A stretch of DNA of 64,000 bases from Candidatus Uhrbacteria bacterium RIFCSPLOWO2_01_FULL_47_17 (GTDB lineage: Bacteria > Patescibacteriota > Patescibacteriia > UBA9934 > GWF2-40-263), in the NCBI GenBank assembly GCA_001791305.1, contig MGEI01000004.1:61101-125100 (forward strand), read 5' to 3'. The notes below the pieces were generated by a model that saw nothing but the letters and a program-made list of their open reading frames with translations, did no database searches and was not told the DNA's origin. Shown here piece by piece: positions 102 to 45,614 of the stretch. Positions within the stretch are counted from its first letter, which is position 1; every line of letters starts with the position of its first letter. The position numbers were made by a program, and so were the translations under genes.

Positions 102-875
102 ATGGATCAATTGTTAACAGAATTAAAGCGTCTTGGCCTTTCGGAAAAAGAGGCGCAGGTTTATCTTTCCGCCCTCGAACTTGGACCCGCGCCGGTTCAA
201 GATATTTCGCATAAAGCAAAAGTGAACCGCGCAACCACGTATGTCATGATCGAGGCGCTCGCAACGCGCGGGCTCATGTCCACGTTTGTGAAAGGGAAGA
301 AACGTTTTTATGTTCCGGAAAGTCCGGATCGTTTGATGTCGATCCTTCGCATTCAACAAAAAGAGTTGGAAGAAAAACACAACGAATTTCAAAAAACATT
401 ACCAATGCTTCTCGCGCTGTTTAATGCAGAAGGGGCGAAGCCGCAAATTCGGTATCTCGAGGGATCAGAAGGTTTGAAAACCCTTCGCGAGACGTTTGAA
501 AAAATGGAAGGGGAGTTTGTGGAAATTGTTCCGTATGACGATGTTCTTGCCACAAGCGAGATCATGGATGATCACGAACGTCATACGCGCGAATTGCATT
601 TAGCAAAAACGCCGCACCGCGCGATTGTGGTGATGGAGAATCCAGATCCATCAAAGATTCCAAACGTTGGAGTTGGAGAAGTACGATTTGTTTCCTCAAA
701 AGAGTTTCCGATGCACGGAGAAATTATTGTGCGTGGAAATCATGTCTTTTTGTTCTCGTACAGATCTGCTGTGCTTGCGGTTGTAATTATCAGTAAAGAA
801 ATTGCCGATGCTGTGCGTGGATTATTTAATTTAGCTTGGAGAGGGGCTGCGGAATATCCATCAAAAAAATCTTAA
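102..875 (+). CDS. TrmB-family HTH transcriptional regulator
   Basis: N-terminal wHTH (LSEKEAQVYLSALELGPAPVQDISHKAKVNRATTYVMIEAL) plus C-terminal TrmB-like domain; 257 aa. Confidence 0.7.
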   Translation: MDQLLTELKRLGLSEKEAQVYLSALELGPAPVQDISHKAKVNRATTYVMIEALATRGLMSTFVKGKKRFYVPESPDRLMSILRIQQKELEEKHNEFQKTLPMLLALFNAEGAKPQIRYLEGSEGLKTLRETFEKMEGEFVEIVPYDDVLATSEIMDDHERHTRELHLAKTPHRAIVVMENPDPSKIPNVGVGEVRFVSSKEFPMHGEIIVRGNHVFLFSYRSAVLAVVIISKEIADAVRGLFNLAWRGAAEYPSKKS

Positions 876-914
876 GTTTTTTTCAAAAAAAGAATCGTCG
901 AACGGTTCGACGAT
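876..914 (-). terminator. Rho-independent terminator oriented for minus-strand transcripts leaving the GC-rich island (perfect palindrome ATCGTCGAACGGTTCGACGAT, then U-run on minus strand)
   Basis: Palindrome 894-914; rc gives hairpin followed by UCUUUUUUUG. Confidence 0.5.
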
Positions 915-1325
915 AGGGAAGGACAGGAAGAGGCTGCTCACCAAGGTGGGAGCGGACGTGTGAGAACATTCAAAGAGCTGTCAGAAAGTGAGAACGGAGT
1001 TCGACGGGCGTATCCTGGGAAAAGAAGTCAGCTACCGAGCGCGCAGTGCATGTGTGGTTTGATTGCCGCGGGATTCCCAAGGAGAGGATTCCTTGAGTTG
1101 GCATACATGCGTAGGGCTCTTTTTGTAGCATCGTTCAATTCACGCGCAATCGCCGTCATGACACAGACCCCTGGAGAAGAGCTGTCATGACGTGATTTCG
1201 GATACGGGTTACGGAACTCATACGTACCTCATTTGACAGACATCTGTGCCATCACTTGTCACCTCTTCCTCTCGTTTGGAAGAGAAGATAAATCTATCAT
1301 GTTTTTGGAAAAATGTCAACATTAT

Positions 1326-1358
1326 AAACAAAAACACCCGTTAGGGTGTTTTTTCTCG
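1326..1358. terminator. Bidirectional intrinsic terminator (AAAAACACCC-GTTA-GGGTGTTTTTT)
   Basis: 6-bp GC stem 1334-1349 flanked by A-run and T-run; lies at left edge of GC-rich island. Confidence 0.55.
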
Positions 1359-1479
1359 TTTTGAGGGAGAGATTGGTCTTTCGACCTATTCACATCACGA
1401 GAGATCATGAGGTGGATAGGTCGAGCCGCGCGAGATGCGAGAGAGTGCAGCAGCGCGACTGGTTGAGGGTTGAAATGGG

Positions 1480-1815
1480 TTACCCAAGCGTCTTCAGGAT
1501 CGCGCCACCGATGTGGATGCCGGCAAGTCCGGCGTAGACCACGCTCGTAAGCGCAACACCAATCCGCGAGAGCAGAAGGTGGCGATGGCTCCAAAGGATC
1601 CCTGCCGCGATTACGACCAAGAAGATCTTCGCGATTGCGAACGTGTGCACTCCGTGAAGGAGGGCGTGGTTCATGATCGGATTCGCTTCGGTCGCGAGTC
1701 CGGATTGGATCCAGTAGAGCGTCGCACCTGCGTCGAGGAGATTCAGTATGCACAGAATCATCTCAGCGCGACGAAACAGAATCACCTGCTCGAGTGCCTT
1801 TGCGATGTCCGACAT
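1480..1815 (-). CDS. Small polytopic membrane protein (possibly DUF5658-like); first gene of GC-rich island
   Basis: 111 aa from ATG (MSDIAKALEQ…) preceded by GGAGGA SD; 3-4 hydrophobic helices; GC ~60%. Confidence 0.45.
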   Translation of the reverse strand: MSDIAKALEQVILFRRAEMILCILNLLDAGATLYWIQSGLATEANPIMNHALLHGVHTFAIAKIFLVVIAAGILWSHRHLLLSRIGVALTSVVYAGLAGIHIGGAILKTLG

Positions 1816-1857
1816 GTCATCCTCCAAAACGTTTTGGGTACGATGATTCTAGAGCCC

Positions 1858-1880
1858 CCTCTCCTTTCGAAGGAGAGGGC
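1858..1880. repeat. Perfect 10-bp GC-rich hairpin CCCTCTCCTT-TCG-AAGGAGAGGG ~40 nt upstream of the 1480-1815 gene; related copy upstream of rlmN (27626-27650)
   Basis: Exact inverted repeat seen in sequence; similar CCCTCTCC…GGAGGG hairpin 10 nt upstream of rlmN start. Confidence 0.5.
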
Positions 1881-2742
1881 GGGGGGAGAGGTGTCGCATG
1901 AGAATTCAGATTCCACAAATCACTTTGCGATTTCTGAAGACTGCGCGACGGAACTGCGTGAAAATGGGTAGCTTTCCCACTTCACGCAGCCCGTCGCGCG
2001 AGGTTCAACAAGGCTCCGTCAGAGATCATCATCGAGGTTCCGGTTCTCCTCGATTTGTCTTAGATGAGCAGATATCATCTCCAGAGTTTGTGGATGCGTG
2101 CCAACATCCTGATCGATCTCGTTGACCATCGATCGTTCTGGTTTCACCAAGTCCTTGGTACTTATACTAGGCGTCTTGCAATTCGACGCCCCAAGGTGCA
2201 GCTTCAGATTTTTTCGGACCAACATTCAGTCCTATCGATCGCTTGTGACACGATCGATAAAATCCTAGGATGTTTTACATGCTTACGTCGACAGCTGATC
2301 GTCAACGCTGCATCGGGAACAGAAGATGTACATGGATCCTCCTTGATCCTGTCGTTGTGCTCGCTCCCAATCGGCGGAGAGCGAACAGGTTGCGCCACAA
2401 AGCACACTCAAATGCGACCGGTGCCATCAAAGGCTAACCGAGCCGCGAACCGCCGGGCGCGTGCGATACCCGCCGGCAAACATGTCCGACCTTCAAATGG
2501 CCGAACCGAGGTCGTTACGCACGGCGCGTATACGAGCTCGGAAAGCCGGGCGATGGTTCGTGGAGTGTCCACTAGCATCGCCCAAGTTTCCAATTCGTAG
2601 ACTTGAGATCTTCACCGGCCAATGGAGGGCCAGGGTCTCTTTTTTTCTTCATGCTTCGATCGCCTAACATCGAGCATTGCTTTCCTGAGGGATGACGCTT
2701 ATCTCAATGGTGACTCCTTGTGTTTCGTTGAGGGTTGGTCGC

Positions 2743-2889
2743 TCAGCGCGTGATCTTCTTGATCAGACCGCGGGCCACATCCATGCACTTGAAGCACGCG
2801 ACGAGGCCGAAGGTCAAAACCCGAACGGTCAGCGGGGCGAGATCGTCGAGAAATTCTCGATGCTCGGCCTTGAGAGCTTCTTCGCTCAT
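2743..2889 (-). CDS. Small hypothetical protein (48 aa, MSEEALKAEHREFLDDLAPLTVRVLTFGLVACFKCMDVARGLIKKITR)
   Basis: GGAGG SD 5 nt upstream of ATG; stop of upstream small ORF overlaps its SD (AAGTAGGAGGTTCCCATG); GC-rich island. Confidence 0.45.
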   Translation of the reverse strand: MSEEALKAEHREFLDDLAPLTVRVLTFGLVACFKCMDVARGLIKKITR

Positions 2890-2898
2890 GGGAACCTC

Positions 2899-3024
2899 CT
2901 ACTTCTTCTTGCCGAACGGGTTGCGGACCCACTCGAGGACCGCAACGCCAAGGGCGAGGGGGATGAGGATGACCATCAGGCCAACCGGGGTCGGCATGTG
3001 GGCGTCGATTTGCTTCTGGGTCAT
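2899..3024 (-). CDS. Small single-TM membrane peptide (41 aa, MTQKQIDAHMPTPVGLMVILIPLALGVAVLEWVRNPFGKKK)
   Basis: GGAGGATAC-ATG SD; hydrophobic core; translationally coupled to next small ORF. Confidence 0.45.
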   Translation of the reverse strand: MTQKQIDAHMPTPVGLMVILIPLALGVAVLEWVRNPFGKKK

Positions 3025-3057
3025 GTATCCTCCGGATCGTCGCGCGATGCGAGCGAT

Positions 3058-3427
3058 CTAGTTGTAGGTGAGCGCGCGCGCCCGCTTTTCGAGGAGCGGG
3101 AGCAGAGCGATGACTTCGTTCGACGACAGGTGAACCATCCACTCCGACGTGTTCATGCCGATCACGTGGCCGAGCTTGAACGCACGGGTAAGCTTGCGCA
3201 CACCGTTGCGTCCGATGAACTCGCCGTTGTCGCCGATGATCCAGGCCGGGGTCACGCCGAAGCGCTTGACCAGCCAGGTTTCGGAGACGCGATCGATTTC
3301 GCGCTCGGCGAATTCCATCTCGGCCTCGCACTTGAAGAGATCGAGGTCGAAGCCGGCTTCGACGAGGGTCAGTTCCAGTTGCGTGAGACGGCTGCTTTTG
3401 CCCGATTGGGCGATCTGCAGGTTCATG
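3058..3427 (-). CDS. Hypothetical protein (123 aa from ATG; alternative GTG start at 3495 gives 145 aa)
   Basis: ATG preceded by GAGG SD; ORF-track 3058..3495 begins at a GTG without SD; GC-rich island. Confidence 0.45.
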
Positions 3428-3515
3428 TCTGCCTCGTGCCTCGAGATTCTCGAGAGCATTCTGACTGTTGAGAAATCAGGTACCTTCCGATCCACAAAGA
3501 TGGAGGCAAGGGATC

Positions 3516-3643
3516 CAGTGACCTCCCGAAGGCGGTGTAGACCATGAATATCTTGCGTATGAAATGAGTAAGCTTGCGCCTAGTCAAGCCATTTGATATT
3601 CGCTGGGTGTCTCTTTCAAAGACGCCCAGTTGCTCTCTCCTCC
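3516..3643. repeat. Copy R1 of a ~130-nt duplicated leader/regulatory element (second copy 5892-6027)
   Basis: ~80% identity over ~95 nt with R2 (cagtgacc[t/g]cccgaagg…catga[a/g]tatc[t/g]tgcgtatg[a/g]aatgagt…tcaagccatttgata…tttcaaagacg…gctctctcc); sits immediately upstream of minus-strand operon. Confidence 0.6.
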
Positions 3644-3674
3644 ATTTTTGTGGGGCGAAGGGGGAAGGGCTGCA

Positions 3675-3806
3675 GAGTGAAAAAGTGGAAAAGTGAAAGA
3701 GTGAAGGAAGGAAATTTACTATTTGACGATTTGTTTAAAGAACAATCAAATAAATAATTTCCTTCACTTTTTCACTCTTTGACTTTTTTACTTTGTTTTC
3801 TTTCTC
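3675..3806. repeat. Purine-tract inverted-repeat element (AGTGAAAGAGTGAAGGAA arms around AT-rich loop), copy 1 of 4
   Basis: Left arm gagtgaaaaagtggaaaagtgaaagagtgaaggaagg, right arm ttccttcactttttcactctttgactttttt; low-GC element inside GC-rich island. Confidence 0.55.
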
Positions 3807-3848
3807 TGCAAGATGCCGCGAGCGTTTGCTCGTGATCTCTTGGGAGAC

Positions 3849-3893
3849 GGTCGATGAGGTGTAGCGAAGTAAGTGCTACATGCCTCATCGACC
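3849..3893. repeat. Strong hairpin GGTCGATGAGG(TGTAGC…GCTACA)CCTCATCGACC downstream of island gene D
   Basis: 11-bp perfect outer stem plus 6-bp inner stem; not followed by U-run. Confidence 0.45.
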
Positions 3894-3947
3894 GCAAGGT
3901 CTTTGTTTAAGAAGTCGTTAGACTCGACTTATGTGCAGGCTTGAGAC

Positions 3948-5120
3948 CTAGCCCTTGCGATTGCCCTTCTGCTGGAAGCGGCGGGGCTGGGTCTTCTGGG
4001 CCTGGGGGCCGGTGTAGAAGGCGGCGTGGAGCTTGTCCTGCTCCGCACTCGCCTCATACACAGCCGCGTTGGTCTCGAGGTCGCCGAGGATCTCCGTTTC
4101 GGCCTTGGCGACCGACTGGGGATTCTCGATGAACTTCGCGGCGCACTTCGGGCAGAGGGCGTAGTGGGTCATCAAGTGACTCACGTCCACCGGGCCACGC
4201 TTCGCCTCGTAGTTCATCTCCTGCATGTCCTCGAGCCGGGGGGCCTGCATGTCGTCGACCGAACCGACGAACGCCGTGCCCTTTTCGAGCGCGTGCTCGC
4301 ACTCGCGACCCTGGACGCACCGGACGAACGTCTCGCCAGTGCGGGGGTGCTTGAGCGGCTGGCCCAGGAAGACGGTCTTGCGGAAGTCCGAGTCCTGCTT
4401 GCGCCGCGCCGCCTTCTGCTCTTCGACCCGCTGCTTGCTCGCCGCCGCCCGCGCCTCTTCGGGGCGGACGATGTCGAGGGCCCTGTCGAGGAACATCAGG
4501 TCGTTGCGGTTGAGACCCCGCTGCATGGCGCCCTTGGCCGAGACCGCGTAGTTGCGCAGGTCGGCTTCGGTGGTGCGGCGATCGAGTTTCGTGTCGAGCA
4601 GGGCGAGCTTGAGAACCAGCATCTTTTCCACCGGACGCGTTTCGCCGGTGATGACGCAGGTCCACTCCTCGACCGGTTTCGCCTCGACCTTGTCCTCGAC
4701 CTTGGGGGCCTCGGGCTTGGTCTCGACGACGGTCTCGGTCGCTTCGGCCACGAGGGCTTCCACGATCTCGACCACCGGCGCGGGCATCAGCGACGCGAGC
4801 TGGTTGTTGTTCAGGCCAGCGAGGATGTCGCTCGGCGAGAACTTCTGCAGCTCGGCCACGTTGGCGCCGCCCTCGACCAGGCTCATCACCTTGTCGAGCG
4901 TGTCCACCGCCGGCGCCTTGCCGTCGGGGCACAGCCACTCGATGTCGACGCCCTTCTCCACGAGCGCCACGGTCGAGTTGAGCACTTCCTTGCCGATCGT
5001 CGCCAGGTTCTCGCGCTTCGCAGTGCGCAGAGCCTCGGACTTGTCGGCCTTGGCCGTGTTCGGATCGATGGTGACGCCGCGGTTGAGGAACTTGGCGACG
5101 AAGGTATGGGTCGTGGACAT
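3948..5120 (-). CDS. Hypothetical acidic protein with C-terminal Cys/His zinc-ribbon-like motifs (390 aa)
   Basis: ATG (MSTTHTF…) with GGAG SD; ORF-track 490-aa version extends through an in-frame GC-rich leader; C-terminus C-x5-C-x-H … C-x2-C; acidic/Lys-rich middle (KPEAPKVEDKVEAKPVEE). Confidence 0.5.
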   Translation of the reverse strand: MSTTHTFVAKFLNRGVTIDPNTAKADKSEALRTAKRENLATIGKEVLNSTVALVEKGVDIEWLCPDGKAPAVDTLDKVMSLVEGGANVAELQKFSPSDILAGLNNNQLASLMPAPVVEIVEALVAEATETVVETKPEAPKVEDKVEAKPVEEWTCVITGETRPVEKMLVLKLALLDTKLDRRTTEADLRNYAVSAKGAMQRGLNRNDLMFLDRALDIVRPEEARAAASKQRVEEQKAARRKQDSDFRKTVFLGQPLKHPRTGETFVRCVQGRECEHALEKGTAFVGSVDDMQAPRLEDMQEMNYEAKRGPVDVSHLMTHYALCPKCAAKFIENPQSVAKAETEILGDLETNAAVYEASAEQDKLHAAFYTGPQAQKTQPRRFQQKGNRKG

Positions 5121-5478
5121 GATGAACTCCGTGCGCGAGACTAGCTCGACGCGTTGTGAACCTATAGGAACACTGAATGCCCTTTTGGGGCTAGGACAAC
5201 TTTGGCCACCCGGCCTCAGCATCACAGATTCCGCAAGCTTGCACTTACGAACTCTGAAAGCTCGGCGACGGACTGTGTTGAAAGGGAGTGCCTTTCGCCA
5301 CAGCCGTCGCCAGATCTCGAGAAGAAGACTCGTGCCGCTCAACACTCGAGATGTTGAGTTCACTGTATGTATCCACATCCAATCGCCTGACATTGGATGC
5401 TTCTGTTTGCTGTTAGGCAATCATCGTTCTAACCTTTCCTTTGCTCTGTAACCTGAGCTAGGTGTGAGTTGAGGTCGG

Positions 5479-5607
5479 CTAGTCGACGCTGCGCTGGGCG
5501 GCGGTGACGAGCTTGGCGGCGGCGATGAGCTCGTTCGGGGTCTTGAACTGGCGCAAGTCGATGTAGGCCCGTTCGAGAATCTCGACTGCGGCAATGATCT
5601 GAATCAT
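5479..5607 (-). CDS. Small hypothetical protein (42 aa, MIQIIAAVEILERAYIDLRQFKTPNELIAAAKLVTAAQRSVD)
   Basis: GGAGTACCC-ATG SD; GC-rich island. Confidence 0.4.
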   Translation of the reverse strand: MIQIIAAVEILERAYIDLRQFKTPNELIAAAKLVTAAQRSVD

Positions 5608-5651
5608 GGGTACTCCGTGCGAACTCGGTGGTTCGCGTCTGGGTGGTTGGG

Positions 5652-5801
5652 CTACTTGACGAGGACCAGAGGCGCGAGCGAGCTGGCGAAGAGCAGCAGC
5701 ATGGCGACTTCGCCGGTGCAGAGCTTGCCGAGGATCTCGAACGCGCGATCGCTGCTCGTGGGGATGAAGTACGGGAGGGAGACGGTGAGGTTCTTGATCA
5801 T
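5652..5801 (-). CDS. Small hydrophobic-tailed protein (49 aa, MIKNLTVSLPYFIPTSSDRAFEILGKLCTGEVAMLLLFASSLAPLVLVK)
   Basis: GGAG 9 nt upstream of ATG; first ORF downstream of repeat R2. Confidence 0.4.
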   Translation of the reverse strand: MIKNLTVSLPYFIPTSSDRAFEILGKLCTGEVAMLLLFASSLAPLVLVK

Positions 5802-5891
5802 GGTGTCGATCTCCGTGCGAACTCGATGGCTCGCGTCTGGGCTGTGGACTGGTCGATTCGTTCGACGCAGGAATCCGAGGGTAGGTCGATT

Positions 5892-6027
5892 CAGTGACCG
5901 CCCGAAGGCTGGTGTGAATCATGAGTATCGTGCGTATGGAATGAGTGAGGGTTAACCCAGTCAAACCATTTGATACTCACCGCTCTCATTCGCCGAAGCG
6001 TTTTGAAAGACGGTTTGCTCTCTCCCC
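5892..6027. repeat. Copy R2 of the duplicated ~130-nt leader element
   Basis: See R1; the palindrome at the equivalent position differs (GGGTTAACCC here vs AAGCTT in R1). Confidence 0.6.
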
Positions 6028-6211
6028 TCAGGTTTCTGAGTCGAGTTACATAAAAAGACCCATTGCTTTGCGTATCCAAGCATGAGAGATACGAAAACCA
6101 ATCGGTCTTATTATTTGCTATCAGTGAATGGGACTGGATAGCTCAGCTCTCTCCCCGTTTGAGTTGTAAGGTGAAGAAGTGATCTTGTCGCTTCGTCATC
6201 TTGATGGACAT

Positions 6212-6240
6212 ACTATATCACTTTTTGTCAGTTTTGTCAA
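6212..6240 (-). promoter_or_regulatory. Sigma70-like promoter TTGACA-N17-TATAGT on minus strand, reading into the GC-rich island
   Basis: rc of 6212-6240 = TTGACAAAACTGACAAAAAGTGATATAGT; lies in low-GC flank at island right boundary. Confidence 0.45.
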
Positions 6241-6318
6241 GACCCACACTTAGGAAATAGTGAGAATTAGGCTAGAATTAGCCAAATCAAGTTGTCAGGA
6301 AGTTCTGGAATGGAAAGG

Positions 6319-6415
6319 GGTAGCCGCAGGCTTCAGCCTGCGCCGGGTGGGAATATGGCTATTTCATATTTCGAGATACACCTTCGGGTACACGCAGGCT
6401 GAAGCCTGCGGCTAC
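6319..6415. repeat. Perfect 23-bp inverted repeat (GTAGCCGCAGGCTTCAGCCTGCG … CGCAGGCTGAAGCCTGCGGCTAC) with 51-bp spacer, followed by T-run; contains the GGCTTCAGCC motif
   Basis: Exact arms 6319-6341 and 6393-6415; then cgcgtttttatgttataat. Confidence 0.6.
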
Positions 6416-6425
6416 CGCGTTTTTA

Positions 6426-6434
6426 TGTTATAAT
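6426..6434 (+). promoter_or_regulatory. Extended -10 box TGTTATAAT 10 nt upstream of holB ATG (short/leaderless 5' end)
   Basis: tgttataat 6426-6434, ATG 6445, no SD. Confidence 0.4.
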
Positions 6435-6444
6435 TTCCACACCT

Positions 6445-7407
6445 ATGCCACCATCCCCATTTTACAACCTTATTGGACACGAACGTGTTCAGGATGTTTT
6501 GGGTCGAATGATTGAACGAGACCGTTTGCCGCACGCCTTTTTGTTTGTGGGGCCGCATCATCTGGGAAAAACGCTTGTGGCGAGGCAGCTGATTCGGGCG
6601 ATCTCGAAGGAGGCCGAAGGAGCGGCGTCTATGGACGTGATCGAACTTGGGTGTCTTACGGATGAGAAGACGGGAAAGAAGAAGGCACAGATTTCGGTTG
6701 AGCAGGTTCGCGAAGTTTGCGAGAGACTTGCGATGAGTGCAATGAACGGTGGATGGAAAATTGCGTTTATTAAAAATGCAGATGCGCTTTCAAACGCGGC
6801 GGCGAATGCGCTTTTGAAAACACTTGAAGAACCAAAAGGGAAAACGTTGTTCATTCTGCGCGCGCCTTCCGTTGAGTCTGTTCTTCCAACCGTTGCGTCA
6901 CGTTGTCAGGTGATGCGTTTTCATCCGGTGTCGAGAACTACGCTTGCAACAGCACTCGTCAAAAAAGGACACGCGAAACCAGATGCGGAAATCGCAGCGG
7001 CCATCTCGCTTGGTCGCCCGGGTCGTGCATTTCGGTATCTCACAAAAAGTGAAGACCGATCACAAACAGATATTGGGGTGGAACAAGCGATCGATTTGTT
7101 CTCCTCAGACATTGCAAAACAAATTCGACTTACATCCGGACTGCTTCCAAAAGAAGATGTAAACAAACGTTCGGCCGCAGATCAGACGGTACGATTATGG
7201 CAGCGCGTATTGCGCGATGAATTATTGCGATCTGTTGGATGCGAAGAACTCGTTGTATATCGATCGGACACTTCCCGTAACCCAAGGCTTCAGCCTTGGC
7301 ACGTCTCTCGACTGATCGCCACACTCAAAAAAACAGAAGAGGGAAGAACGGCGATTGCGCATAATACAAATCCACAATTAACGTTAGAGCACATTTTATT
7401 TTCGTGA
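6445..7407 (+). CDS. holB: DNA polymerase III delta' subunit (clamp-loader AAA+)
   Basis: Walker A GPHHLGKT, clamp-loader layout, 320 aa. Confidence 0.85.
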   Translation: MPPSPFYNLIGHERVQDVLGRMIERDRLPHAFLFVGPHHLGKTLVARQLIRAISKEAEGAASMDVIELGCLTDEKTGKKKAQISVEQVREVCERLAMSAMNGGWKIAFIKNADALSNAAANALLKTLEEPKGKTLFILRAPSVESVLPTVASRCQVMRFHPVSRTTLATALVKKGHAKPDAEIAAAISLGRPGRAFRYLTKSEDRSQTDIGVEQAIDLFSSDIAKQIRLTSGLLPKEDVNKRSAADQTVRLWQRVLRDELLRSVGCEELVVYRSDTSRNPRLQPWHVSRLIATLKKTEEGRTAIAHNTNPQLTLEHILFS

Positions 7408-9153: not shown

Positions 9154-10479
9154 ATGGAGCATTCAAAAATCACCATGGAAAAAATTGTTTCACTCGCGAA
9201 AACTCGCGGGTTTGTTTTCCCTGGTTCGGATATTTACGGCGGACTCGCAAACTCATGGGACTACGGTCCACTTGGAGTTGAATTGAAAAACAACATTAAA
9301 CAAACATGGTGGAAAATGTTTGTGCAAGAGCGCCTCGACATGGTTGGGATCGATGCCGCACTCATCATGAATCCAAAAGTCTGGGAAGCGTCGGGGCACG
9401 TCGCTACGTTTAGTGATCCGCTCGTCGAATGTAAAACATGTCATGAGCGTTATCGCGCCGATCAGATCGATCTTGGGGCGCCATGTGTAAAATGCGGCAA
9501 CAAGGGAACGTTTACCGATCCTGCATCGTTTAATCTCATGATGAAAACATGGCTCGGTCCAAAAGAGGACGCGAGTGCTGTTGCGTATTTCCGACCAGAA
9601 ACCGCGCAGGCGATGTTTGTGGATTTTCCGAATGTGATTACATCGAGTCGTAAGCGCGTTCCGTTTGGAATGGCACAGATTGGAAAAGCGTTCCGCAATG
9701 AAATTACTCCGGGAAATTTTATTTTCCGCACACGCGAGTTTGAACAAATGGAGATCGAGTACTTCGTGCATCCATCCGATTGGGAGAAGTTCTTTGAAGA
9801 GTGGCTCGCGAATATGTACAAGTTTATGGACCGCGTCGGAATAGACGCGGCTCGTTCGCATAATCTCGAAGTCGCAAAAGATGAGCTCGCGCACTACTCG
9901 AAACGTACAGTCGACATTGAATTTGATTATCCGTTCGGACGCAAAGAATTGTACGGACTCGCATATCGCACAGACTTCGATCTTTCCACACATGCGAAAT
10001 ACTCTGGATCGAACATCGTGTATACAGACCCAATGACAAACGAGAAATATGTTCCGCATGTGATTGAACCCTCTTTTGGTGTCGATCGCACACTTCTCGC
10101 TGTTCTCCTCTCGGCCTACGACGAGGAAACAGTCGCATCCGAAGAAGGGGAAGGAGACACACGCGTTGTTTTGCGATTCAAAAAAGAAATTGCCCCAATC
10201 AAGATTGCTATTTTGCCACTCAGTAAAAAAGAAGAACTTTCAAACGTCGCGCGCCCAATCGCAGAAGCGCTTGCAAAATATTGGCGTGTTGACTATGACG
10301 AAACGCAATCCATTGGAAAGCGTTACCGACGTCAAGACGAAATCGGAACGCCGTATTGTGTCACGGTCGACTTCGAGTCACTCGAAGACAAAGCAGTCAC
10401 CATTCGCGATCGCGATACGATGAAACAAGAACGGGTACCAATTGCCGAGCTCGAAGTGTGGTTCAAAAAACAATTTTAA
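9154..10479 (+). CDS. glyQS: Glycine--tRNA ligase (homodimeric class II type)
   Basis: FVFPGSDIYGGLANSWDYGPLGVELKNN…, class II motifs, 441 aa. Confidence 0.9.
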   Translation: MEHSKITMEKIVSLAKTRGFVFPGSDIYGGLANSWDYGPLGVELKNNIKQTWWKMFVQERLDMVGIDAALIMNPKVWEASGHVATFSDPLVECKTCHERYRADQIDLGAPCVKCGNKGTFTDPASFNLMMKTWLGPKEDASAVAYFRPETAQAMFVDFPNVITSSRKRVPFGMAQIGKAFRNEITPGNFIFRTREFEQMEIEYFVHPSDWEKFFEEWLANMYKFMDRVGIDAARSHNLEVAKDELAHYSKRTVDIEFDYPFGRKELYGLAYRTDFDLSTHAKYSGSNIVYTDPMTNEKYVPHVIEPSFGVDRTLLAVLLSAYDEETVASEEGEGDTRVVLRFKKEIAPIKIAILPLSKKEELSNVARPIAEALAKYWRVDYDETQSIGKRYRRQDEIGTPYCVTVDFESLEDKAVTIRDRDTMKQERVPIAELEVWFKKQF

Positions 10480-10480
10480 A

Positions 10481-10605
10481 AAAAGTGAAAGAGTGATGGA
10501 GTGGAAGAGTGAAGGAATGAGACAACTTTTTCTTTTTTGAAACGATGAAACAAAAACAAAAAGCTGTTTCTCTTCCACCACTCTTTAACTATTTCACTCT
10601 ATCAC
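10481..10605. repeat. Purine-tract inverted-repeat element, copy 2 (AAGTGAAAGAGTGATGGAGTGGAAGAGTGAAGGAATG … CTCTTCCACCACTCTTTAACTATTTCACTCTATCACTC)
   Basis: Same AGTGAA-repeat family as 3675-3806; between glyQS stop and M16 peptidase start. Confidence 0.55.
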
Positions 10606-16093: not shown

Positions 16094-16150
16094 GAAAAGT
16101 CAAAGAGTTAAAAAGTCAAAAAGTGAAGGAGATGACACTATTTTCATTTT
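16085..16150. repeat. Single-arm copy (3) of the purine-tract repeat family (AAAAGTCAAAGAGTTAAAAAGTCAAAAAGTGAAGGAG)
   Basis: Near-identical to rc of right arm of copy 1 (caaagtaaaaaagtcaaagagtgaaaaagtgaaggaa). Confidence 0.5.
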
Positions 16151-38976: not shown

Positions 38977-40356
38977 TTATTTTCCCCGGAGAAAAAAGAC
39001 GTGTGCAATCGTTTTTAAAAGAATTTCCATGTCGAAGAGGAAGGATCTGTGTTTCAAGTAGTAGAGATCGTATTGCAGTTTGCGTTTGGATTCCGTTGCG
39101 TTGCCGGCGTACACATGAAGCTGTGCCCATCCAATAAGGCCCGGGCGAATCGCGTGGCGCGATTCGAAGTAGGGAATTTCATCTCGGAGTTGCTCGACGA
39201 TTCCCGCTTGTTCTGGACGTGGGCCAATGAGGCTCATGTCACCACGCAGGATGTTGATCCATTGCGGAAGCTCGTCGAGGCGTGTTGTGCGTAGGAATCT
39301 CCCAACAACGGTGACGCGCGGATCGTGATCGGATGTCCAAGTATTGTTTGGGGTTCCCGCATGCATGGTTCGGTATTTGTAAATGGTGAATGGGGTGCCG
39401 TTTACAGAGAGGCGTGTTTGGGTGAAAAAGATTTTTCCGCGGTCGGAGAGTTTGATGAGAAGAGCGATGGGGAGAAAGGTGAGGAGGAACACGCTCGCAA
39501 TAAGAAGCGAAAAGAGGATATCAAGCACGCGTTTGATCATGGGGTAAAAACCCACTTGGTCTCGATGTGTATGTTCAAGAAGCCACCAGTCGTTGAGGTT
39601 GCTTGTGTAGACGCAACGAAACACATCTTCGTAAAAATCATCGAATCGGATAAATGTTGCTCCGTGGGAATGAAGGTGAGCAAAGAGTTTAAGTGTTTGA
39701 TCGGAAAAGGATGTGTTTGCCGGAACGACAAAGACGAGGGATTGATGTGCACGGTGTGTTTTTTCGATGAGGGTGAGGAGGGCGGAATCAGGAACAGAAT
39801 GAACGGTAAAAATATTCGTCATGTCATCAAGTTCTTTTTTACATGCGTTATATTCTTGTTCGAGATTGATAAAGTACACTTCCTGACGAGTAATATGTTT
39901 TGTGATCGATCGAATGAAGAATTGCCAAAGGGTTGAGAAGAGAAGAATGTAAAGGGTGTCGACGAGCAAGAATCGTCGTGGGGTGATGATGAGGTTTGGT
40001 TGAAGATAGAAAAAAACAATCGCGACAACAAAACCGAGCGCGTTTGCACCAATGAGGGCAGAAAAGAGATCGATGGGACGTTTATGTGTTTTAAGATCGA
40101 AGAGACCAAAGGCGTAAGAAAGAATGAGCCAGATAAGAGCAATCGTGCCAAAAAGAAAAACGTGTGCTTGAAGTTGTTCTTCCGAAAGTCCTGTGGGGAA
40201 TCGCCACAAAATGGTGAGCCATAAACTGATAGCAAAAATTATCATCGTAGGAAGGACGAGAAAGATGAGATGAATCCAGACGTTTTTATGTGTGAGAGAC
40301 ATAGATTGATGTGTTCTATCATACCGTGAAAAAATTGGGTATGATAGGGGGCACAT
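38977..40356 (-). CDS. Polyprenyl-phosphate sugar phosphotransferase (WbaP/bacterial sugar transferase family)
   Basis: Multi-TM N-terminus; C-terminal RPGLIGWAQ…DxxY region typical of bacterial sugar transferases. Confidence 0.8.
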   Translation of the reverse strand: MCPLSYPIFSRYDRTHQSMSLTHKNVWIHLIFLVLPTMIIFAISLWLTILWRFPTGLSEEQLQAHVFLFGTIALIWLILSYAFGLFDLKTHKRPIDLFSALIGANALGFVVAIVFFYLQPNLIITPRRFLLVDTLYILLFSTLWQFFIRSITKHITRQEVYFINLEQEYNACKKELDDMTNIFTVHSVPDSALLTLIEKTHRAHQSLVFVVPANTSFSDQTLKLFAHLHSHGATFIRFDDFYEDVFRCVYTSNLNDWWLLEHTHRDQVGFYPMIKRVLDILFSLLIASVFLLTFLPIALLIKLSDRGKIFFTQTRLSVNGTPFTIYKYRTMHAGTPNNTWTSDHDPRVTVVGRFLRTTRLDELPQWINILRGDMSLIGPRPEQAGIVEQLRDEIPYFESRHAIRPGLIGWAQLHVYAGNATESKRKLQYDLYYLKHRSFLFDMEILLKTIAHVFFLRGK

Positions 40357-40395
40357 TGACGATTGCTCGCAATCTGTTTAAATGTGCTCGTATTT

Positions 40396-41424
40396 ATGAA
40401 AAAAGCGTTTATCACAGGTATCACCGGGCAAGACGGGTCATATCTCGCGGAATTGTTGTTGGAGAAAGGGTATGAGGTGCATGGTATGATTCGCCGTTCG
40501 AGCAGTTTTAACACAAATCGAATTAATCACATTTATCAAGATTTGCATCAGCGCGATCTTCGTTTAATGTTGCATTATGGTGATTTGTCTGATGCCAGCA
40601 TTGTAAGTCGGCTTTTACAAAAAATTCAACCGGATGAAATTTATAATCTGGGCGCACAAAGCCATGTGCAAGTAAGTTTTGAATTACCAGAATATACAGG
40701 AAATGTTGATGCACTCGGCACACTTCGTATTTTAGATGCCATACGAGATCTCGGTATCCCTTCAAAATATTATCAAGCAGGATCTTCCGAAATGTTTGGC
40801 AAGGTCTTGGAGACACCACAAAAAGAGACGACTCCATTTTACCCGCGCAGTCCATATGGATGTGCAAAAGTGTATGCGCATCATCTTACTGTGAATTATC
40901 GCGAAGCACATGGTATTTTTGCTTGTAACGGAATTTTATTCAATCATGAATCGCCGCGTCGAGGTGGAACATTTGTAACAAAAAAAATCATTGACGCATT
41001 GAAAGAGATCCAAGCTGGCAAACAAGAGAGAATTTTTCTTGGGAATTTAAATGCACTGCGTGACTGGGGGTATGCAAAAGATTATGTGGAAGCTATGTGG
41101 CTCATGTTACAACAAGAACAAGCTGACGATTATGTAATTGCCACAGGTGAAACACATAGTGTTCGTGAATTTGTGGAGGTCGCCGCAAAACATTTTGGAA
41201 TGAATATAATTTGGCAGGGATTTGGAATGGAAGAAAAAGGAATCGATGCAACGTCAGGAAAAATCATTGTGGAGATTGATGCACGTTATTTTCGACCATC
41301 CGAGGTTGAGACATTATTAGGTGATGCACGGAAAGCGCATGAAAAATTAGGTTGGAAGCCAAAAGTTGGATTTCAAGAATTGATCAAAATCATGATCGAT
41401 GATGAATTACATGTTAGAACGTAA
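40396..41424 (+). CDS. gmd: GDP-mannose 4,6-dehydratase
   Basis: [40 protein letters not shown]… near-canonical Gmd. Confidence 0.9.
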
Positions 41425-41426
41425 AT

Positions 41427-42593
41427 ATGATTCAGCTCATAAAATCTTCCTTTTATCAAGAGCATGAAACAAAGCAAAAGCTTGCTGAGTTTATCGTATC
41501 TGCGCAGATCTTGAGCATGGGTGAACAATGTCGATCGTTTGAAGAAAAATTTGCACAAAAACAGAGGCGAAAATTTGCTGTTTATGTTAGCAGTGGCAGT
41601 ATGGCAAATCTCGTCCTAATTCAATCACTTCGTAATTTAGGTATTTTAAAGGTGGGGGATCGAGTAGGATTTTCTGCATTAACATGGCCAACCAACGTCA
41701 TGCCACTTTTTCAATTGGGTCTTATTCCTGTCCCAATCGACTGTCGATTAGAGACCTTGAATGTATCTCCCATGGAATTAGGAAAACATTTGGAACATTT
41801 GGATGCTCTTTTTTTGACGAACGTATTAGGATTTTCGGATGATGTATCGCGCATAAAATCGATGTGTGCTCAAAAGAATATTGTGTTGATTGAAGATAAT
41901 TGTGAATCGCTCGGATCCATGGTTGATGGGATATGTTTGGGTAATTTTGGACTTGCTTCAACATTTTCATTTTTTGTCGGTCATCATCTATCTACAATCG
42001 AAGGCGGAATGATTTGTACGGATGATGAAGATCTTTATCACATGCTTGTGATGACTCGAGCACATGGATGGGACCGCAATCTCTCAAAAGAGAAACAAGA
42101 TAATTTGAGAAAGATAAATGGCATTGATGCATTTTTTTCAAAATATGTTTTTCATGATTTGGCCTTTAATGCAAGACCTACAGAAATAAACGGATTTTTG
42201 GGATGTGTACAAATTGATTTTTGGGATGAAATCGTTCAAAAACGAGCAAATAATTTTCAACTGTTTGTTGATGTGTTGAATCAGAACTCTGATTTCATTC
42301 CACTAAACGTTCATCACATGGATCTTGTTTCAAATTTTGCTATGCCAGTTGTGTGCCGGACAAAAGAACTATCTGATGCATACAAGAAATTGTTTTTAGA
42401 TATGGATGTCGAAATTCGTCCGGTGATTGCGGGAGACATGACAAAACAAATTTTTTATAAGAAACACGCACACACGGCAATGGTGTGCCCAAATTCAGAG
42501 TTGGTTCATCAGAATGGTTTTTATTTTGGCAATAATCCTGAAATGACAACAGAAGAATTAAGTCAACTTACACAACTATTACGTAAAAAATAG
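41427..42593 (+). CDS. DegT/DnrJ/EryC1-family sugar aminotransferase/dehydratase (GDP-perosamine synthase- or ColD-like)
   Basis: PLP-dependent DegT fold; adjacent to gmd. Confidence 0.75.
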   Translation: MIQLIKSSFYQEHETKQKLAEFIVSAQILSMGEQCRSFEEKFAQKQRRKFAVYVSSGSMANLVLIQSLRNLGILKVGDRVGFSALTWPTNVMPLFQLGLIPVPIDCRLETLNVSPMELGKHLEHLDALFLTNVLGFSDDVSRIKSMCAQKNIVLIEDNCESLGSMVDGICLGNFGLASTFSFFVGHHLSTIEGGMICTDDEDLYHMLVMTRAHGWDRNLSKEKQDNLRKINGIDAFFSKYVFHDLAFNARPTEINGFLGCVQIDFWDEIVQKRANNFQLFVDVLNQNSDFIPLNVHHMDLVSNFAMPVVCRTKELSDAYKKLFLDMDVEIRPVIAGDMTKQIFYKKHAHTAMVCPNSELVHQNGFYFGNNPEMTTEELSQLTQLLRKK

Positions 42594-42596
42594 TGT

Positions 42597-43547
42597 ATGC
42601 TTGATGTGCAGACAAAAATATTCGTTGCAGGACATCGGGGGCTTGTCGGCTCCGCGCTTGTTCGAGCCCTTGAAAGAAATGGGCATATGAATATTATTGT
42701 GCGTACAAGGTCTGAATTAGATCTGATGGACCCTGAAGCGGTTCAGTTCTTTTTTCAAACGGAGAAGCCTCAGGTGGTTATTGATGCTGCCGCGAAGGTG
42801 GGAGGTATTATGGCAAATATTCAAGCCCCCGCAGATTTTATTTTCCAAAATTTGCAAATACAAAATAATTTGATTCACGGGGCATACAAAAATGGTGTTA
42901 AAAAATTTGTTTTTTTGGGATCGTCTTGTATCTACCCACGTTTATCTCAACAACCAATGAAAGAGGAATATTTCATGACCGGTCCACTTGAGCCTACAAA
43001 TGAGGCATATGCCATCGCAAAGATTGCTGGAATAAACATGTGTCAATCATACAACAAGCAATATGGCACAGATTTTATATCCTTGATGCCAACGAATATT
43101 TATGGATTTCAAGATAATTTCAGTCTTGAAACAGGGCACGCACTTCAAGCAATGATGCATCGATTTCATAAAGCAAAGATGGAACAAGTTCCGTTCATTA
43201 CGCTTTGGGGTAGCGGAGAAGTGTATCGTGAATTTATGTTTTCAGACGATGCTGCTGATGCGATATTGTTTCTTGCGAACAATTATTCAGGTAGTGAGAT
43301 TGTAAATATTGGAACGGGAGTTGATGTGCAAATCAAGGAACTCGCAGAAATCATCAAACGAGTCGTTGGTTATCAGGGAGAAATTCAGTGGGACTTAACA
43401 AAACCAGAAGGTATGCCAAGAAAATTGATGGACGTGCAGAAATTGAATAATTTAGGATGGAAACACACACGTTCTCTCGAGGAGGGTATAATACAAACAT
43501 ACAAGTGGTTTCTTGAAAATGCTGCGTGTAATGTATCTGTCAATTAA
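42597..43547 (+). CDS. fcl: GDP-L-fucose synthase (GDP-4-keto-6-deoxymannose 3,5-epimerase/4-reductase)
   Basis: KIFVAGHRGLVGSALVRALE…; SDR-like fold. Confidence 0.85.
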   Translation: MLDVQTKIFVAGHRGLVGSALVRALERNGHMNIIVRTRSELDLMDPEAVQFFFQTEKPQVVIDAAAKVGGIMANIQAPADFIFQNLQIQNNLIHGAYKNGVKKFVFLGSSCIYPRLSQQPMKEEYFMTGPLEPTNEAYAIAKIAGINMCQSYNKQYGTDFISLMPTNIYGFQDNFSLETGHALQAMMHRFHKAKMEQVPFITLWGSGEVYREFMFSDDAADAILFLANNYSGSEIVNIGTGVDVQIKELAEIIKRVVGYQGEIQWDLTKPEGMPRKLMDVQKLNNLGWKHTRSLEEGIIQTYKWFLENAACNVSVN

Positions 43548-43556
43548 ATTTTCATT

Positions 43557-44375
43557 ATGGATATACTGATCCGTCCAACAACACAGTGGTGGAAATTTGA
43601 TTGGAAGGAATTCTGGCAGTTTCGAGATTTGTTTTATTTTTTTGCATGGCGGGATATTAAGGTTCGCTATAAACAAACAGCCATTGGTGCACTTTGGGCC
43701 GTGTTTCAACCATTTGTGACCATGGTTGTGTTCACAATCTTTTTTGGAAATCTGGCAAAAATCTCATCGGATGGAATTCCATATCCAATTTTTGTGTACG
43801 TCGGACTTTTATTTTGGACCTTGTTTAGCGCAGGTTTATCCGATGTGAGTAATACATTCATTGGAAATCAAAACATCATCACCAAAGTTTACTTTCCACG
43901 CATTATTTTGACATTTACGAGTTTGACAACATCGATAATTGATTTTTTTGTGGCCTGTATTGTTCTTATTGGAATGATGATTTGGTATCACTTTATTCCA
44001 TCGACAATTGCGTTAATTTTTATTCCGTTTTTATTTGTCATCACATTTTTAACGACAGTGGGAATCGGGTTGTTTTTTTCTTCTTTTAATGTGAAATACC
44101 GAGATGTGCGTTTTATTTTACCGTTTTTCATACAACTTCTTTTGTTTTTGACCCCAGTCATCTACCCTGTAAGTCTTGTGTCTCCTGAGTGGCGTTGGGT
44201 TCTAGGATTCAATCCAATGTCCGGTGTGATTGATACAGCGCGTGTTGTACTTCTCGGAGTTGGTCATGTTGATTGGCTACTTTTAAGCATTTCGATGTTT
44301 GTGAGTGTGGTCTATTGCTTGATTGGATACGGGTATTTCAAGGGGACCGAACGTTATTTTGCAGATGTGATTTAA
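43557..44375 (+). CDS. wzm: ABC-2 type polysaccharide export permease
   Basis: 6-TM ABC-2 permease profile. Confidence 0.75.
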   Translation: MDILIRPTTQWWKFDWKEFWQFRDLFYFFAWRDIKVRYKQTAIGALWAVFQPFVTMVVFTIFFGNLAKISSDGIPYPIFVYVGLLFWTLFSAGLSDVSNTFIGNQNIITKVYFPRIILTFTSLTTSIIDFFVACIVLIGMMIWYHFIPSTIALIFIPFLFVITFLTTVGIGLFFSSFNVKYRDVRFILPFFIQLLLFLTPVIYPVSLVSPEWRWVLGFNPMSGVIDTARVVLLGVGHVDWLLLSISMFVSVVYCLIGYGYFKGTERYFADVI

Positions 44376-44399
44376 CTGATTGTTTTATTTCTCTTTATT

Positions 44400-45614
44400 A
44401 TGTCTGCAATTATTGAAGTGAATAACTTAGGAAAAAAATACTTAATTGGTGAGAAGGAACGTTATTTAGCGTTGCGCGATAAGTTGGCACACCCAATAAA
44501 AGCACTCAAAAATACTCGGTCGAGTGAAGTATTTTGGGCACTTAGTGATATAAGTTTTTCTGTCGAGAAAGGCGAAGTGTTAGGTATTATTGGAAAAAAT
44601 GGTTCTGGAAAAAGTACATTGTTAAAAATTTTGTCTAAAATTACTCCTCCAACAACAGGGGAAGTTTGTTTGCGTGGACGTGTTGGTAGTCTACTAGAAG
44701 TAGGCACAGGATTTCATCCTGAACTTACTGGTCGAGAGAATATTTATTTAAGTGGATCGATTCTTGGAATGCGTAAAAAAGAGATAGATAAAAAATTCGA
44801 GGAAATCGTAAATTTTTCTGGTGTGGAGGCATTTCTTGATACGCCGATTAAACGTTATTCATCCGGAATGTCTGTTCGACTCGGATTTGCGGTTGCGGCT
44901 CATCTTGAGCCAGAGATTTTGTTAGTGGACGAAGTTTTGGCTGTTGGGGATGCAGAATTTCAAAAAAAGTGTTTAGGAAAAATGGGGGAGATTACAAAAC
45001 AGGGTGCGCGAACAATCATTTTTATAAGTCATAACATGGCGGCGATTAATCAGTTGTGCGACAGGGTTCTTTTGTTAGAAAATGGACATATTAAAAAAAA
45101 TGATACTCCCGAAAGTGTCGTGAGTGAATACCTTCGTGATTTGACACATCAAGGTGGTATTTGGGAACGCACATCATCCAAAACAGTAGCTGAAGATCAT
45201 TTTGTGAAATCTGTTATTTTACAAAACAGTAAAAAAATTAATACAAGAGTTTTTTTTGCTAACGAATCTATTCGGATACAATGTTGCATTGTAAGCAAGA
45301 AGCAGGAAAATATATTTTTGGCAGTCGGTATTCGTGATGTGCTCTCAAATCAAATCATTCATCTGAATAGTAAAAATCAGAAAGAAAAATTACAGACGAA
45401 GGCGGGCAAGAATATGTTTCAAGTAGAATTTGAAAATATTTTAAGTGCAGGTGAATATTATGTGACCGTATGGATTGGAGATGCGAGTTTTGTAACGCAA
45501 GATTATGTGAGAGATTGTATTTCATTTTCGGTAGATCTGTCGAATTTGGATACGAGCTATCATTTTGGATCTGTTATTGTTCCAGCGACATGGTCAATGG
45601 TTCATTTAGATTAG
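44400..45614 (+). CDS. wzt: Polysaccharide export ABC ATPase with C-terminal carbohydrate-binding extension
   Basis: Walker A GKNGSGKST, signature YSSGMSVRL, Walker B LLVDEV. Confidence 0.85.
   Translation: MSAIIEVNNLGKKYLIGEKERYLALRDKLAHPIKALKNTRSSEVFWALSDISFSVEKGEVLGIIGKNGSGKSTLLKILSKITPPTTGEVCLRGRVGSLLEVGTGFHPELTGRENIYLSGSILGMRKKEIDKKFEEIVNFSGVEAFLDTPIKRYSSGMSVRLGFAVAAHLEPEILLVDEVLAVGDAEFQKKCLGKMGEITKQGARTIIFISHNMAAINQLCDRVLLLENGHIKKNDTPESVVSEYLRDLTHQGGIWERTSSKTVAEDHFVKSVILQNSKKINTRVFFANESIRIQCCIVSKKQENIFLAVGIRDVLSNQIIHLNSKNQKEKLQTKAGKNMFQVEFENILSAGEYYVTVWIGDASFVTQDYVRDCISFSVDLSNLDTSYHFGSVIVPATWSMVHLD

Follow-up and report, generated by a model that had tools for sequence, protein, structure and literature searches.

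Several described systems share features with the element reported here. A tandem arrangement is known for aptamers, the geometry of a four-way junction with two loops is known from the hairpin and twister-sister ribozymes, and variable surroundings rich in ORFans are typical of bacterial self-cleaving ribozymes. Paralogous tandem copies are typical of the hok/sok, ldr and zor-orz loci, and repeats between cassettes that vary in sequence and conserve their structure recall the attC sites of integrons. To our knowledge, the bacteria of the candidate phyla radiation (CPR), which are uncultured and have small genomes, are almost unexplored for regulatory RNA. In the present work a 64,000-nt stretch of contig MGEI01000004.1 (hereafter the window) was analysed; its host is a Candidatus Uhrbacteria, from an uncultured lineage of ultra-small cells, and proteins identical to those of the window occur in Candidatus Uhrbacteria metagenome-assembled genomes (MAGs) from the Rifle aquifer. 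A GC-rich island between the genes for a TrmB-family regulator and holB carries two copies, R1 and R2, of a repeat (R), and compensatory base changes strongly support R as a conserved structured RNA.

The original prediction had placed two related copies of about 130 nt upstream of open reading frames (ORFs) of the island, and both were recovered there in three ways. A repeat search of the window gave an ungapped match with 78% identity over 68 nt (3534-3601 versus 5911-5978); about 180 nt of R1 and R2 could be aligned by pairwise MAFFT, with a mean column identity of 78%; and a sensitive self-BLAST of the island gave a gapped match of 69.6% identity over 171 nt (E=1e-17). The match between R1 and R2 is far above chance expectation. 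The repeat was therefore real, but the predicted extent proved too short, as the domain delimited by the covariance model measures about 185 nt:

5857-6047, minus strand: R2, full copy with a four-way junction (cmsearch 205.5 bits; second model 181 bits; RNAalifold and pair counts)
3482-3661, minus strand: R1, full paralogous copy (cmsearch 162.3 bits; second model 160.7 bits)

Each copy ends 55-60 nt ahead of a start codon, which is the ATG of pA at 3426 for R1 and the ATG of pD at 5801 for R2; with the boundaries above, the distance is 56 nt for both. No third copy was found in the 64-kb window with the filters off, the next-best covariance-model score being 19 bits.

The covariation in R was analysed with 21 distinct R sequences, with homologues from 11 related loci. 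The first alignment comprised 15 distinct sequences, was made with MAFFT without fitting to a model and was folded with RNAalifold; the alignments of 19 and 21 sequences add copies found by the model and lean towards it, because they were fitted to it. The RNAalifold check on the 15 sequences, which had been proposed along with the prediction, returned 49 pairs, and two-sided compensatory changes were observed in 19 of them. In this unfitted alignment 95.9% of the pair cells were paired, compared with 30-52% when the 3′ partners were slid by 1-3 columns, and for four of five measures none of 500 column shuffles reached the observed value. With 19 sequences, 29 of the 49 pairs covaried; with 21 sequences, two-sided changes were present in 32 of the 49, standard pairs made up 95.6% of the cells (28-52% when slid), and none of 500 shuffles matched the observed values. 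The unfitted and the model-fitted alignments agree on the result, and the compensatory changes go beyond both the shuffled and the slid controls. The idea of a structured RNA, drawn at first from a hairpin that kept its position and not its sequence, is borne out by these changes, and the outcome named against it, a simple duplication with neither covariation nor further copies, is contradicted on both points.

It is clear from the consensus that R folds into a four-way junction made of a P0/P1 closing stem, P2, a P3-P4 arm and a P5 arm. The minimum-free-energy (MFE) fold of R1 alone recovered every consensus helix (z = -4.6) and that of R2 alone recovered the same helices (z = -3.2), placed as follows:

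6022-6044, minus strand: R2 P0/P1, 5′ strand (CUCGAC...CUGAGGGGAG), paired with 5861-5884
5861-5884, minus strand: R2 P0/P1, 3′ strand (CCUACCCUCGG...GUCGA), holding a CCUCC-like segment (RNAalifold, pair counts)
6014-6024, minus strand: R2 invariant junction GAGAGAGCAA (alignment)
5979-6013, minus strand: R2 P2, variable hairpin with inner CGC-UUCG-GCG (alignment)
5923-5978, minus strand: R2 P3-P3a-P3b-P4 arm, with P3 GAGUAUC/GAUACUC (pair counts)
5930-5935, minus strand: R2 conserved internal loop AA / ACGCAC (alignment)
5946-5959, minus strand: R2 P4 tip, including GGGTTAACCC (alignment)
5888-5920, minus strand: R2 P5 arm, GAUUCA-C-ACC-A-GCC-UUCG-GGC-GGU-CAC-UGAAUC, with the UUCG loop at 5903-5906 (RNAalifold, pair counts)
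3637-3659, minus strand: R1 P0/P1, 5′ strand (UUCGCCCCAC...AUGGAGGAG), paired with 3485-3508 (CCUCCAU...GUGGAUCGGAA)
3603-3629, minus strand: R1 P2 hairpin, CUGGGCGUCU...AGACACCCAG (alignment)
3546-3601, minus strand: R1 P3-P4 arm, with P3 GAAUAUC/GAUAUUC (RNAalifold, MFE, pair counts)
3569-3582, minus strand: R1 P4 tip UAGGC-GCAA-GCUUA, including AAGCTT (RNAalifold, MFE)
3512-3543, minus strand: R1 P5 arm, with the UUCG loop at 3527-3530 (RNAalifold, MFE, pair counts)

The closing stem P0/P1 has about 20 pairs, among them a GGAGG:CCUCC duplex; 93-94% of its cells are paired, and it shows 7 to 13 two-sided pairs depending on the alignment. The junction GAGAGAGCAA, invariant and purine-rich, precedes P2, in which R1-type and R2-type sequences are unrelated and the pairing is always kept. 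In the alignment the CGC/GCG of the R2 hairpin is replaced in compensatory fashion by CAC/GUG and its ACCG/CGGU by ACUG/CAGU, and R1 orthologue P2 hairpins of wholly different sequence still pair (for example CUAGGCAAUCC...GGAUUCCUAG). P3 has seven pairs, 99% paired and six with two-sided changes, and occurs as GAGUAUC/GAUACUC, GAAUAUC/GAUAUUC, GGGUAUU/AAUACCC or GAUCAUC/GAUGAUU; P3a (AUGG/CCAU) has beside it the invariant AA / ACGCA internal loop. In P4, three of five pairs carry two-sided changes and the tip, mostly a GNRA cap, is GCAA, GAAA, GAGA, UUAA or a hairpin longer by 19 nt, above a stem that itself covaries (U-A to C-G, A-U to G-C). The palindromes AAGCTT (3570-3575) and GGGTTAACCC (5949-5958), which had been noticed at one internal position of the two copies, do occupy the same alignment position, and this "swapped palindrome" is the variable tip of P4. 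The CCUUCGGG hairpin described at the same time was found in both R1 and R2 and is the tip of P5, an arm with an invariant C / CAC loop and mostly a UUCG tip; in two distant copies, those of L039 and L026, GCAA replaces UUCG and the stem is compensated. P5 together with CCUCC may resemble the 3′ end of 16S rRNA.

R is best read as an RNA transcribed from the minus strand. G-U pairs take 87 of 923 pair cells, one G-U in P4 being invariant, and pairing dropped from 95.9% to 88.5% when the opposite strand was considered; the covariance-model scores were 160-205 bits on the minus strand versus 22-31 on the plus strand. Tetraloops of the UUCG and GNRA kinds are motifs of RNA. The TTGACT-17-TTTCAT stretch that had been suggested as a promoter exists as sequence, but it was not called by the promoter scan and is not conserved as a promoter: its "-35" lies inside the covarying helices P3b/P4 and varies (GTACACC, TTGCCT, AAAACC), and the candidate "-10", TTTCAT, falls within the invariant CCAUAC and is without A at position 2. 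A modular DNA operator, suggested in the same place, had to be given up as well, since the fold is strand-specific and uses G-U pairs of one strand, and most copies have non-palindromic GNRA hairpin tips at that site. A coding reading of the mechanical ORFs over R (3423-3587 and 5891-6079) was rejected on the 1-nt and 19-nt indels between orthologues.

R is a ~185-nt RNA domain that had not been described; it belongs to no family of Rfam 15 (4227 models) and is similar in kind to the orphan riboswitch candidates. At the gathering threshold, the whole window returned tRNAs only; at E<=1, the interval 800-6500 returned only chance matches of microRNA (miRNA) hairpins, which lie on an AT-rich inverted repeat; and at E<=0.5, nothing matched R in the three loci that are most distant. 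Literature searches on structured RNAs of Uhrbacteria or Patescibacteria returned nothing relevant.

Relatives of the locus were collected through contigs with homologues of the island gene pF, which were BLASTed against the island, and an exact 20-nt core of R was scanned through species-representative genomes and metagenome contigs. Copies beyond this genome, for which the original prediction had advised a search, were found in related genomes by the core scan and the covariance model. True core matches came from Uhrbacteria MAGs and from two MAGs labelled Gammaproteobacteria, usually with two per contig, and two chance matches were discarded; the Gammaproteobacteria label is doubtful, because both of these MAGs share the holB-BNR/TrmB neighbourhood. 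Every R copy was located in the holB-TrmB gap, pointing away from holB and upstream of an ORF. More distant relatives, reached through TrmB homologues of 58-62% identity, have one R copy each in the same place (88 and 79 bits). The copy number ranges from 1 to 3 per locus, the three being found in locus L028, where two complete copies lie only 3 nt apart. Among phage and plasmid records, none was similar to 3400-6300. An origin of the locus from a mobile element was rejected, as the locus is syntenic and vertically inherited and no PHROG or recombinase match was obtained; three pattern matches on viral contigs were not confirmed by the covariance model.

Identity to R2 of the window was 81-93% for R2 orthologues, and identity to R1 of the window was 77-85% for R1 orthologues; paralogues were 59-69% identical (distance tree of 21 copies), and the flanking coding DNA, holB included, was 70-75% identical between relatives. 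When the island was compared with its relatives by BLAST, non-coding parts were conserved at 80-87% versus 70-74% for the island genes. R1 orthologues and R2 orthologues form separate clades in the distance tree, and therefore the duplication predates the split of the species and both copies were kept. The copies of L028 group apart, which suggests an independent duplication.

The following elements precede R2 on its strand:

6212-6240, minus strand: sigma-70-type promoter TTGACA-17-TATAGT with TG (promoter scan)
6050-6205, minus strand: R0 leader (alignment of 12 loci)

The promoter at 6240-6212 is almost identical in six relatives, and equivalent promoters stand at the same place in the distant loci L039 (TTGACA-17-TATAAT) and L041 (TTGACA-17-TATGTT); transcription probably starts from it. 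R0 consists, in order, of a GGGGAGAGAGC motif (6146-6156), a hairpin, a long two-part terminator-like hairpin (6055-6109) and a U5 tract that stops about 3 nt before R2. The long hairpin covaries (CGAUUG/CAAUCG versus CUAUUG/CAAUAG, and CGUAUC/GAUACG versus CAUAUC/GAUAUG), and the layout of R0 is retained in L039 and L041, in which TrmB is only 58-62% identical. R0 may serve as an attenuator, or it may be a small RNA of its own. By eye, the GGGGAGAGAGC motif and a GUAUC/GAUAC hairpin are common to R0 and R, as they would be if R0 were a degenerate R, but the R covariance model gave no match on R0. Because the terminator-like hairpin stands upstream of R2, expression of R2 would need read-through. 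R1 comes after pF, from which a 160-nt AT-rich inverted repeat separates it in the window; in one relative only eight bases lie between the preceding conserved block and R1, which leaves no room for a promoter, and co-transcription of R1 is therefore likely. The two copies had been predicted to head two operons; both do precede ORFs, but R1 probably lies inside the one long transcript and does not head a second operon. No terminator was found after any of the copies of R; what comes next, 24-100 nt after every one of the 21 and on the same strand, is an ORF with a Shine-Dalgarno sequence.

The genes that flank the island, and those that directly follow R, are these:

102-875, plus strand: TrmB-family regulator (flank)
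6445-7407, plus strand: holB, DNA polymerase III delta′ (flank)
5652-5801, minus strand: pD, 49 aa with a hydrophobic C-terminus, first ORF after R2 (ORF list)
3058-3426, minus strand: pA, 122 aa, first ORF after R1 (ORF list)

The island, from about 1350 to 6300, has 55-70% GC in a window of about 47% GC, and its minus-strand order is pD (49 aa), pE (42 aa), pF (390 aa), pA (122 aa), pB (41 aa), pC (48 aa) and a DUF5658 protein. The minus-strand ORFs are taken as coding because orthologues differ preferentially at third codon positions. In Pfam and PHROG searches of the island ORFs, DUF5658 was the sole Pfam match and no PHROG match was obtained; a recombinase or integrase domain was likewise not found in them by Pfam. 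Homologues of pF and pA were restricted to Uhrbacteria, and the AlphaFold model of pF was weak (predicted local distance difference test, pLDDT, 62), and no PDB structure matched its fold. For pF we considered, and rejected, a TnpB-like RNA-guided nuclease whose guide scaffold would be R, as pF has no OrfB/TnpB match in Pfam and a variable N-terminus. What follows R changes from genome to genome. After R2, a small hydrophobic pD-like peptide is encoded in most close relatives and one has pE directly; after R1 comes pA, except that two genomes encode there an unrelated membrane protein of 65 aa; and the downstream genes of L028, L039 and L041 are unrelated ORFans of 185, 65 and 339 aa. It is the RNA that stays constant, and the genes after it can be interchanged.

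Some further observations concern the island as a whole. Its GC content is about 10-15 points above that of the host in the window, in L028 (3000-6000; host about 50%) and in L041 (11300-12800; host about 38%); in L039 the island and the locus are both about 0.63. The gene content of the holB-TrmB island is unrelated between genomes. The presence of the DUF5658 gene (1480-1827) in the island is variable, because three related loci (RIFOXYB2, LacPavin and CAYOCD) lack it at this position and have the conserved blocks of its two sides directly joined; a contig that is more distant has the gene next to TrmB.

We read R1 and R2 as old paralogous copies of a ~185-nt RNA domain that would act in cis, in the manner of a riboswitch, and control the cassette that follows, and we hold this reading at roughly even chances. 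A sensor-type RNA acting on the next ORF is suggested because R combines a junction, invariant unpaired nucleotides, variable hairpins, a position close to an ORF and, now and then, copies in tandem. In all 21 cases R is followed by an ORF of its own strand and preceded by a conserved promoter, and the case for a role in cis regulation is a positional one. In the mechanism that we propose, a long leader or polycistronic RNA would start at 6240-6212, pass the terminator-like R0 and continue into R, which might act in cis as a sensor domain for a ligand or a protein partner, and sensing would set the expression of the cassette after R. In the switch itself the closing stem may compete with a hairpin that lies downstream, and/or the stem may open, which would free the CCUCC strand of the GGAGG:CCUCC duplex to serve as an anti-Shine-Dalgarno-like segment, as we infer. 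One candidate for the competing hairpin was recognised:

5852-5866, minus strand: candidate alternative hairpin GUCGA-ACGAA-UCGAC, using the outer 3′ strand of the R2 closing stem (MFE fold)

Across six R2-type sequences this hairpin is 96.7% paired, but a compensatory change was seen in a single pair, the observed value was reached by 29 of 500 shuffles, and the statistical power is low. Two genomes have a U-to-C change on the outer 3′ strand for which the downstream partner, but not the 5′ strand, carries the matching change, and analogous competing hairpins were read by eye from the sequences of L039 and L041. For R1, no conserved equivalent of the competing hairpin was found.

Several points weigh against a riboswitch-like function. 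The downstream genes are unrelated ORFans, so that the clue usually given by gene function for a riboswitch is missing. A closing stem so long (about 20 pairs) and so stable is seldom expected of a helix that switches; in most copies 40-90 nt separate R from the Shine-Dalgarno sequence, which is not visibly sequestered; and the strong terminator-like hairpin stands upstream of R2, not downstream. Within the reach of the exact 20-nt core scan, R is confined to one locus of one lineage. The alignments behind the largest pair counts were, moreover, those fitted to the model.

Two other explanations accept R as a functional RNA and place its action elsewhere. R could be a stable non-coding RNA or ribonucleoprotein scaffold that acts in trans after excision, the downstream ORFs being incidental; its compact fold with the 20-pair closing stem and stable tetraloop caps would suit such a role, as would the fact that its only constant partners are the promoter/R0 unit and the holB-TrmB position, with no downstream gene constant. 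We nevertheless consider it unlikely, because no 3′-end signal follows any copy, an ORF with a Shine-Dalgarno sequence always lies within 24-100 nt, and a varying copy number with paralogues that have diverged to about 65% identity and are each conserved fits locus-specific roles better. Somewhat less weight still is given to a self-cleaving ribozyme or RNase processing signal that splits the island transcript with one cut per copy. The invariant unpaired nucleotides do gather in the internal loops of two arms and in the junction, and the copies stand between groups of cistrons, 1-3 per locus and once as a tandem pair, beside variable ORFans; but in a search space of 5.7 kb no known ribozyme family matched even with E<=1 as the threshold, about 185 nt is far above the size of most self-cleaving classes, and no cleavage-site signature could be named.

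Type I toxin systems offer another comparison, in which R would be the 5′ leader of toxin-like mRNAs, keeping pD, pB and the 65-aa membrane protein of relatives silent until processing, with an antisense antitoxin. In most close relatives the ORF that comes first after R2 does encode a small hydrophobic peptide, and the leader nucleotides are conserved above the coding sequence. This is quite improbable, as R1 precedes the soluble 122-aa pA and the distant copies precede non-hydrophobic proteins of 65, 185 and 339 aa, no plus-strand (antisense) promoter was called in or near R, and the invariant junction and loops exceed what occlusion of a Shine-Dalgarno sequence needs. Action at the level of DNA, as a promoter or operator module or as a recombination or attachment site flanking cassettes, is very improbable: direct repeats do stand on both sides of a gene block that differs in content from genome to genome, but the G-U pairs of one strand are needed, including the invariant one in P4, the loops are of RNA type, the "-35" covaries as a helix, the island ORFs hold no integrase or recombinase domain, and the R1 and R2 lineages stay distinct with no sign of exchange between copies. 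Almost no credence is given to the view that R1 and R2 have no function of their own and are neutral remains from a segmental duplication. The repeats S1 and S2 (below) do suggest that a whole module was once duplicated, but separate orthologous clades, conservation above the adjacent coding DNA and compensatory substitutions all speak against neutrality.

R is not the only non-coding part of the island that is conserved. Several blocks (R0, 5483-5181 and 2751-2324) are conserved above the genes, at least one of them with compensatory pairing. The block at 5181-5483 (minus strand, between pE and pF) comprises about 300 non-coding nt, is 80-86% identical across the Uhrbacteria loci and has a 38-nt invariant core GGCACGAGTCTTCTTCTCGAGATCTGGCGACGGCTGTG; 1-nt indels break all its frames, including ORF 3948-5420, which NCBI annotates as a 481-aa protein. 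An RNAalifold run on five sequences returned 67 pairs, 13 with compensatory changes, and the block is probably a second structured RNA domain. Part of it, S2 (5225-5301), is 71% identical over 79 nt to S1 (1907-1980) with E=6e-4, a long hairpin being present in each; the S1/S2 and R1/R2 pairs together suggest a whole-module duplication as the origin of the island. The long conserved non-coding block at 2324-2751 (minus strand, 80-84.5% identity) opens with a Shine-Dalgarno sequence and a start-Arg-stop mini-ORF. Next to this block, with 2283-2345 (minus strand), follow GGATCAAGGAGGATCCATG and a 16-codon ORF containing Cys; relatives have this ORF twice.

Shorter repeats were also observed. A 31-nt repeat at 5613-5643 and 5811-5841 (94% identical, minus sense CCCAGACGCGARCCAYCGAGTTCGCACGGAG) forms a hairpin plus Shine-Dalgarno sequence directly ahead of the start codons of pD and pE, and similar layouts of a hairpin followed by a Shine-Dalgarno sequence also stand ahead of pF, pA and pB. 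The AT-rich inverted repeat between pF and R1 (3654-3814, 160 nt) is made of 8-nt AGTGAAAR units, which occur again in the intergenic stretches 10476-10528 and 16098-16134; it yields the spurious matches to miRNA precursors in Rfam, and it is absent from this place in relatives, which have other short tandem motifs instead (TTTCTACTTT, TAGTTAGAAGT). Farther along the window, 40000-53000 has a low GC content (35-40% versus about 47% elsewhere) and holds diverged repeats at 49145-49203 and 51177-51235, which are probably paralogous genes and unrelated to R.

R is a well-delimited RNA with unusually strong comparative support, namely 32 covarying pairs from 21 sequences, and it lies in a GC-rich island of which much of the non-coding sequence is conserved above the genes. 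Its transcription context is clear, and with 1-3 copies, two old paralogue lineages and swappable downstream genes it forms a natural experiment; it is ready for probing in vitro, and the covariance model can be applied to all Patescibacteria assemblies. If R does sense a ligand or a protein, it would be among the first lineage-specific sensory RNAs of CPR bacteria, and it would provide a handle on the signals that the fast-changing island genes answer to; if it is a ribozyme, it would represent a new class. A bolder proposal, which we put forward only tentatively and would sooner doubt than accept, is that R is the sensor of a new riboswitch class or else a new self-cleaving ribozyme class, specific to the CPR, that gates a hypervariable cassette by holB, and that together with R0, 5483-5181 and 2751-2324 it would make up an RNA-based control of fast-evolving surface or membrane proteins, in an organism for which few regulators are annotated.

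The likeness to known systems can be stated for each of them. Integron attC sites also are repeats between variable cassettes whose folding is kept while the sequence varies; they are, however, simple imperfect hairpins of single-stranded DNA that depend on an integrase, whereas R has a four-way junction, tetraloops of RNA type, strand-specific G-U pairs, no integrase, and diverged copies that do not exchange. The type I leaders (hok/sok, zorO/orzO, tisB/istR) have in common with R a long, conserved and structured leader, small hydrophobic peptides, paralogous copies and an untranslated region conserved above the ORF; R differs in its many non-hydrophobic downstream proteins, in the lack of an antisense promoter and in a junction much more elaborate and more conserved than the hiding of a ribosome-binding site would call for. 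With the hairpin and twister-sister ribozymes, R shares four helices, two arms with conserved internal loops that could dock, and a variable, ORFan-rich setting with 1-3 copies; it has no Rfam match, is two to three times larger and has other loop sequences. From riboswitch aptamers such as the four-way-junction cobalamin and the tandem glycine aptamers, R is set apart by the missing Rfam 15 match, by downstream genes that show no coherent function, by a very long closing stem and by a terminator-like element that lies upstream; it shares with them a compact junction of several helices, unpaired nucleotides that do not vary, peripheral hairpins of variable length, a leader or intercistronic position, tandem copies in one genome and a possible competing hairpin.

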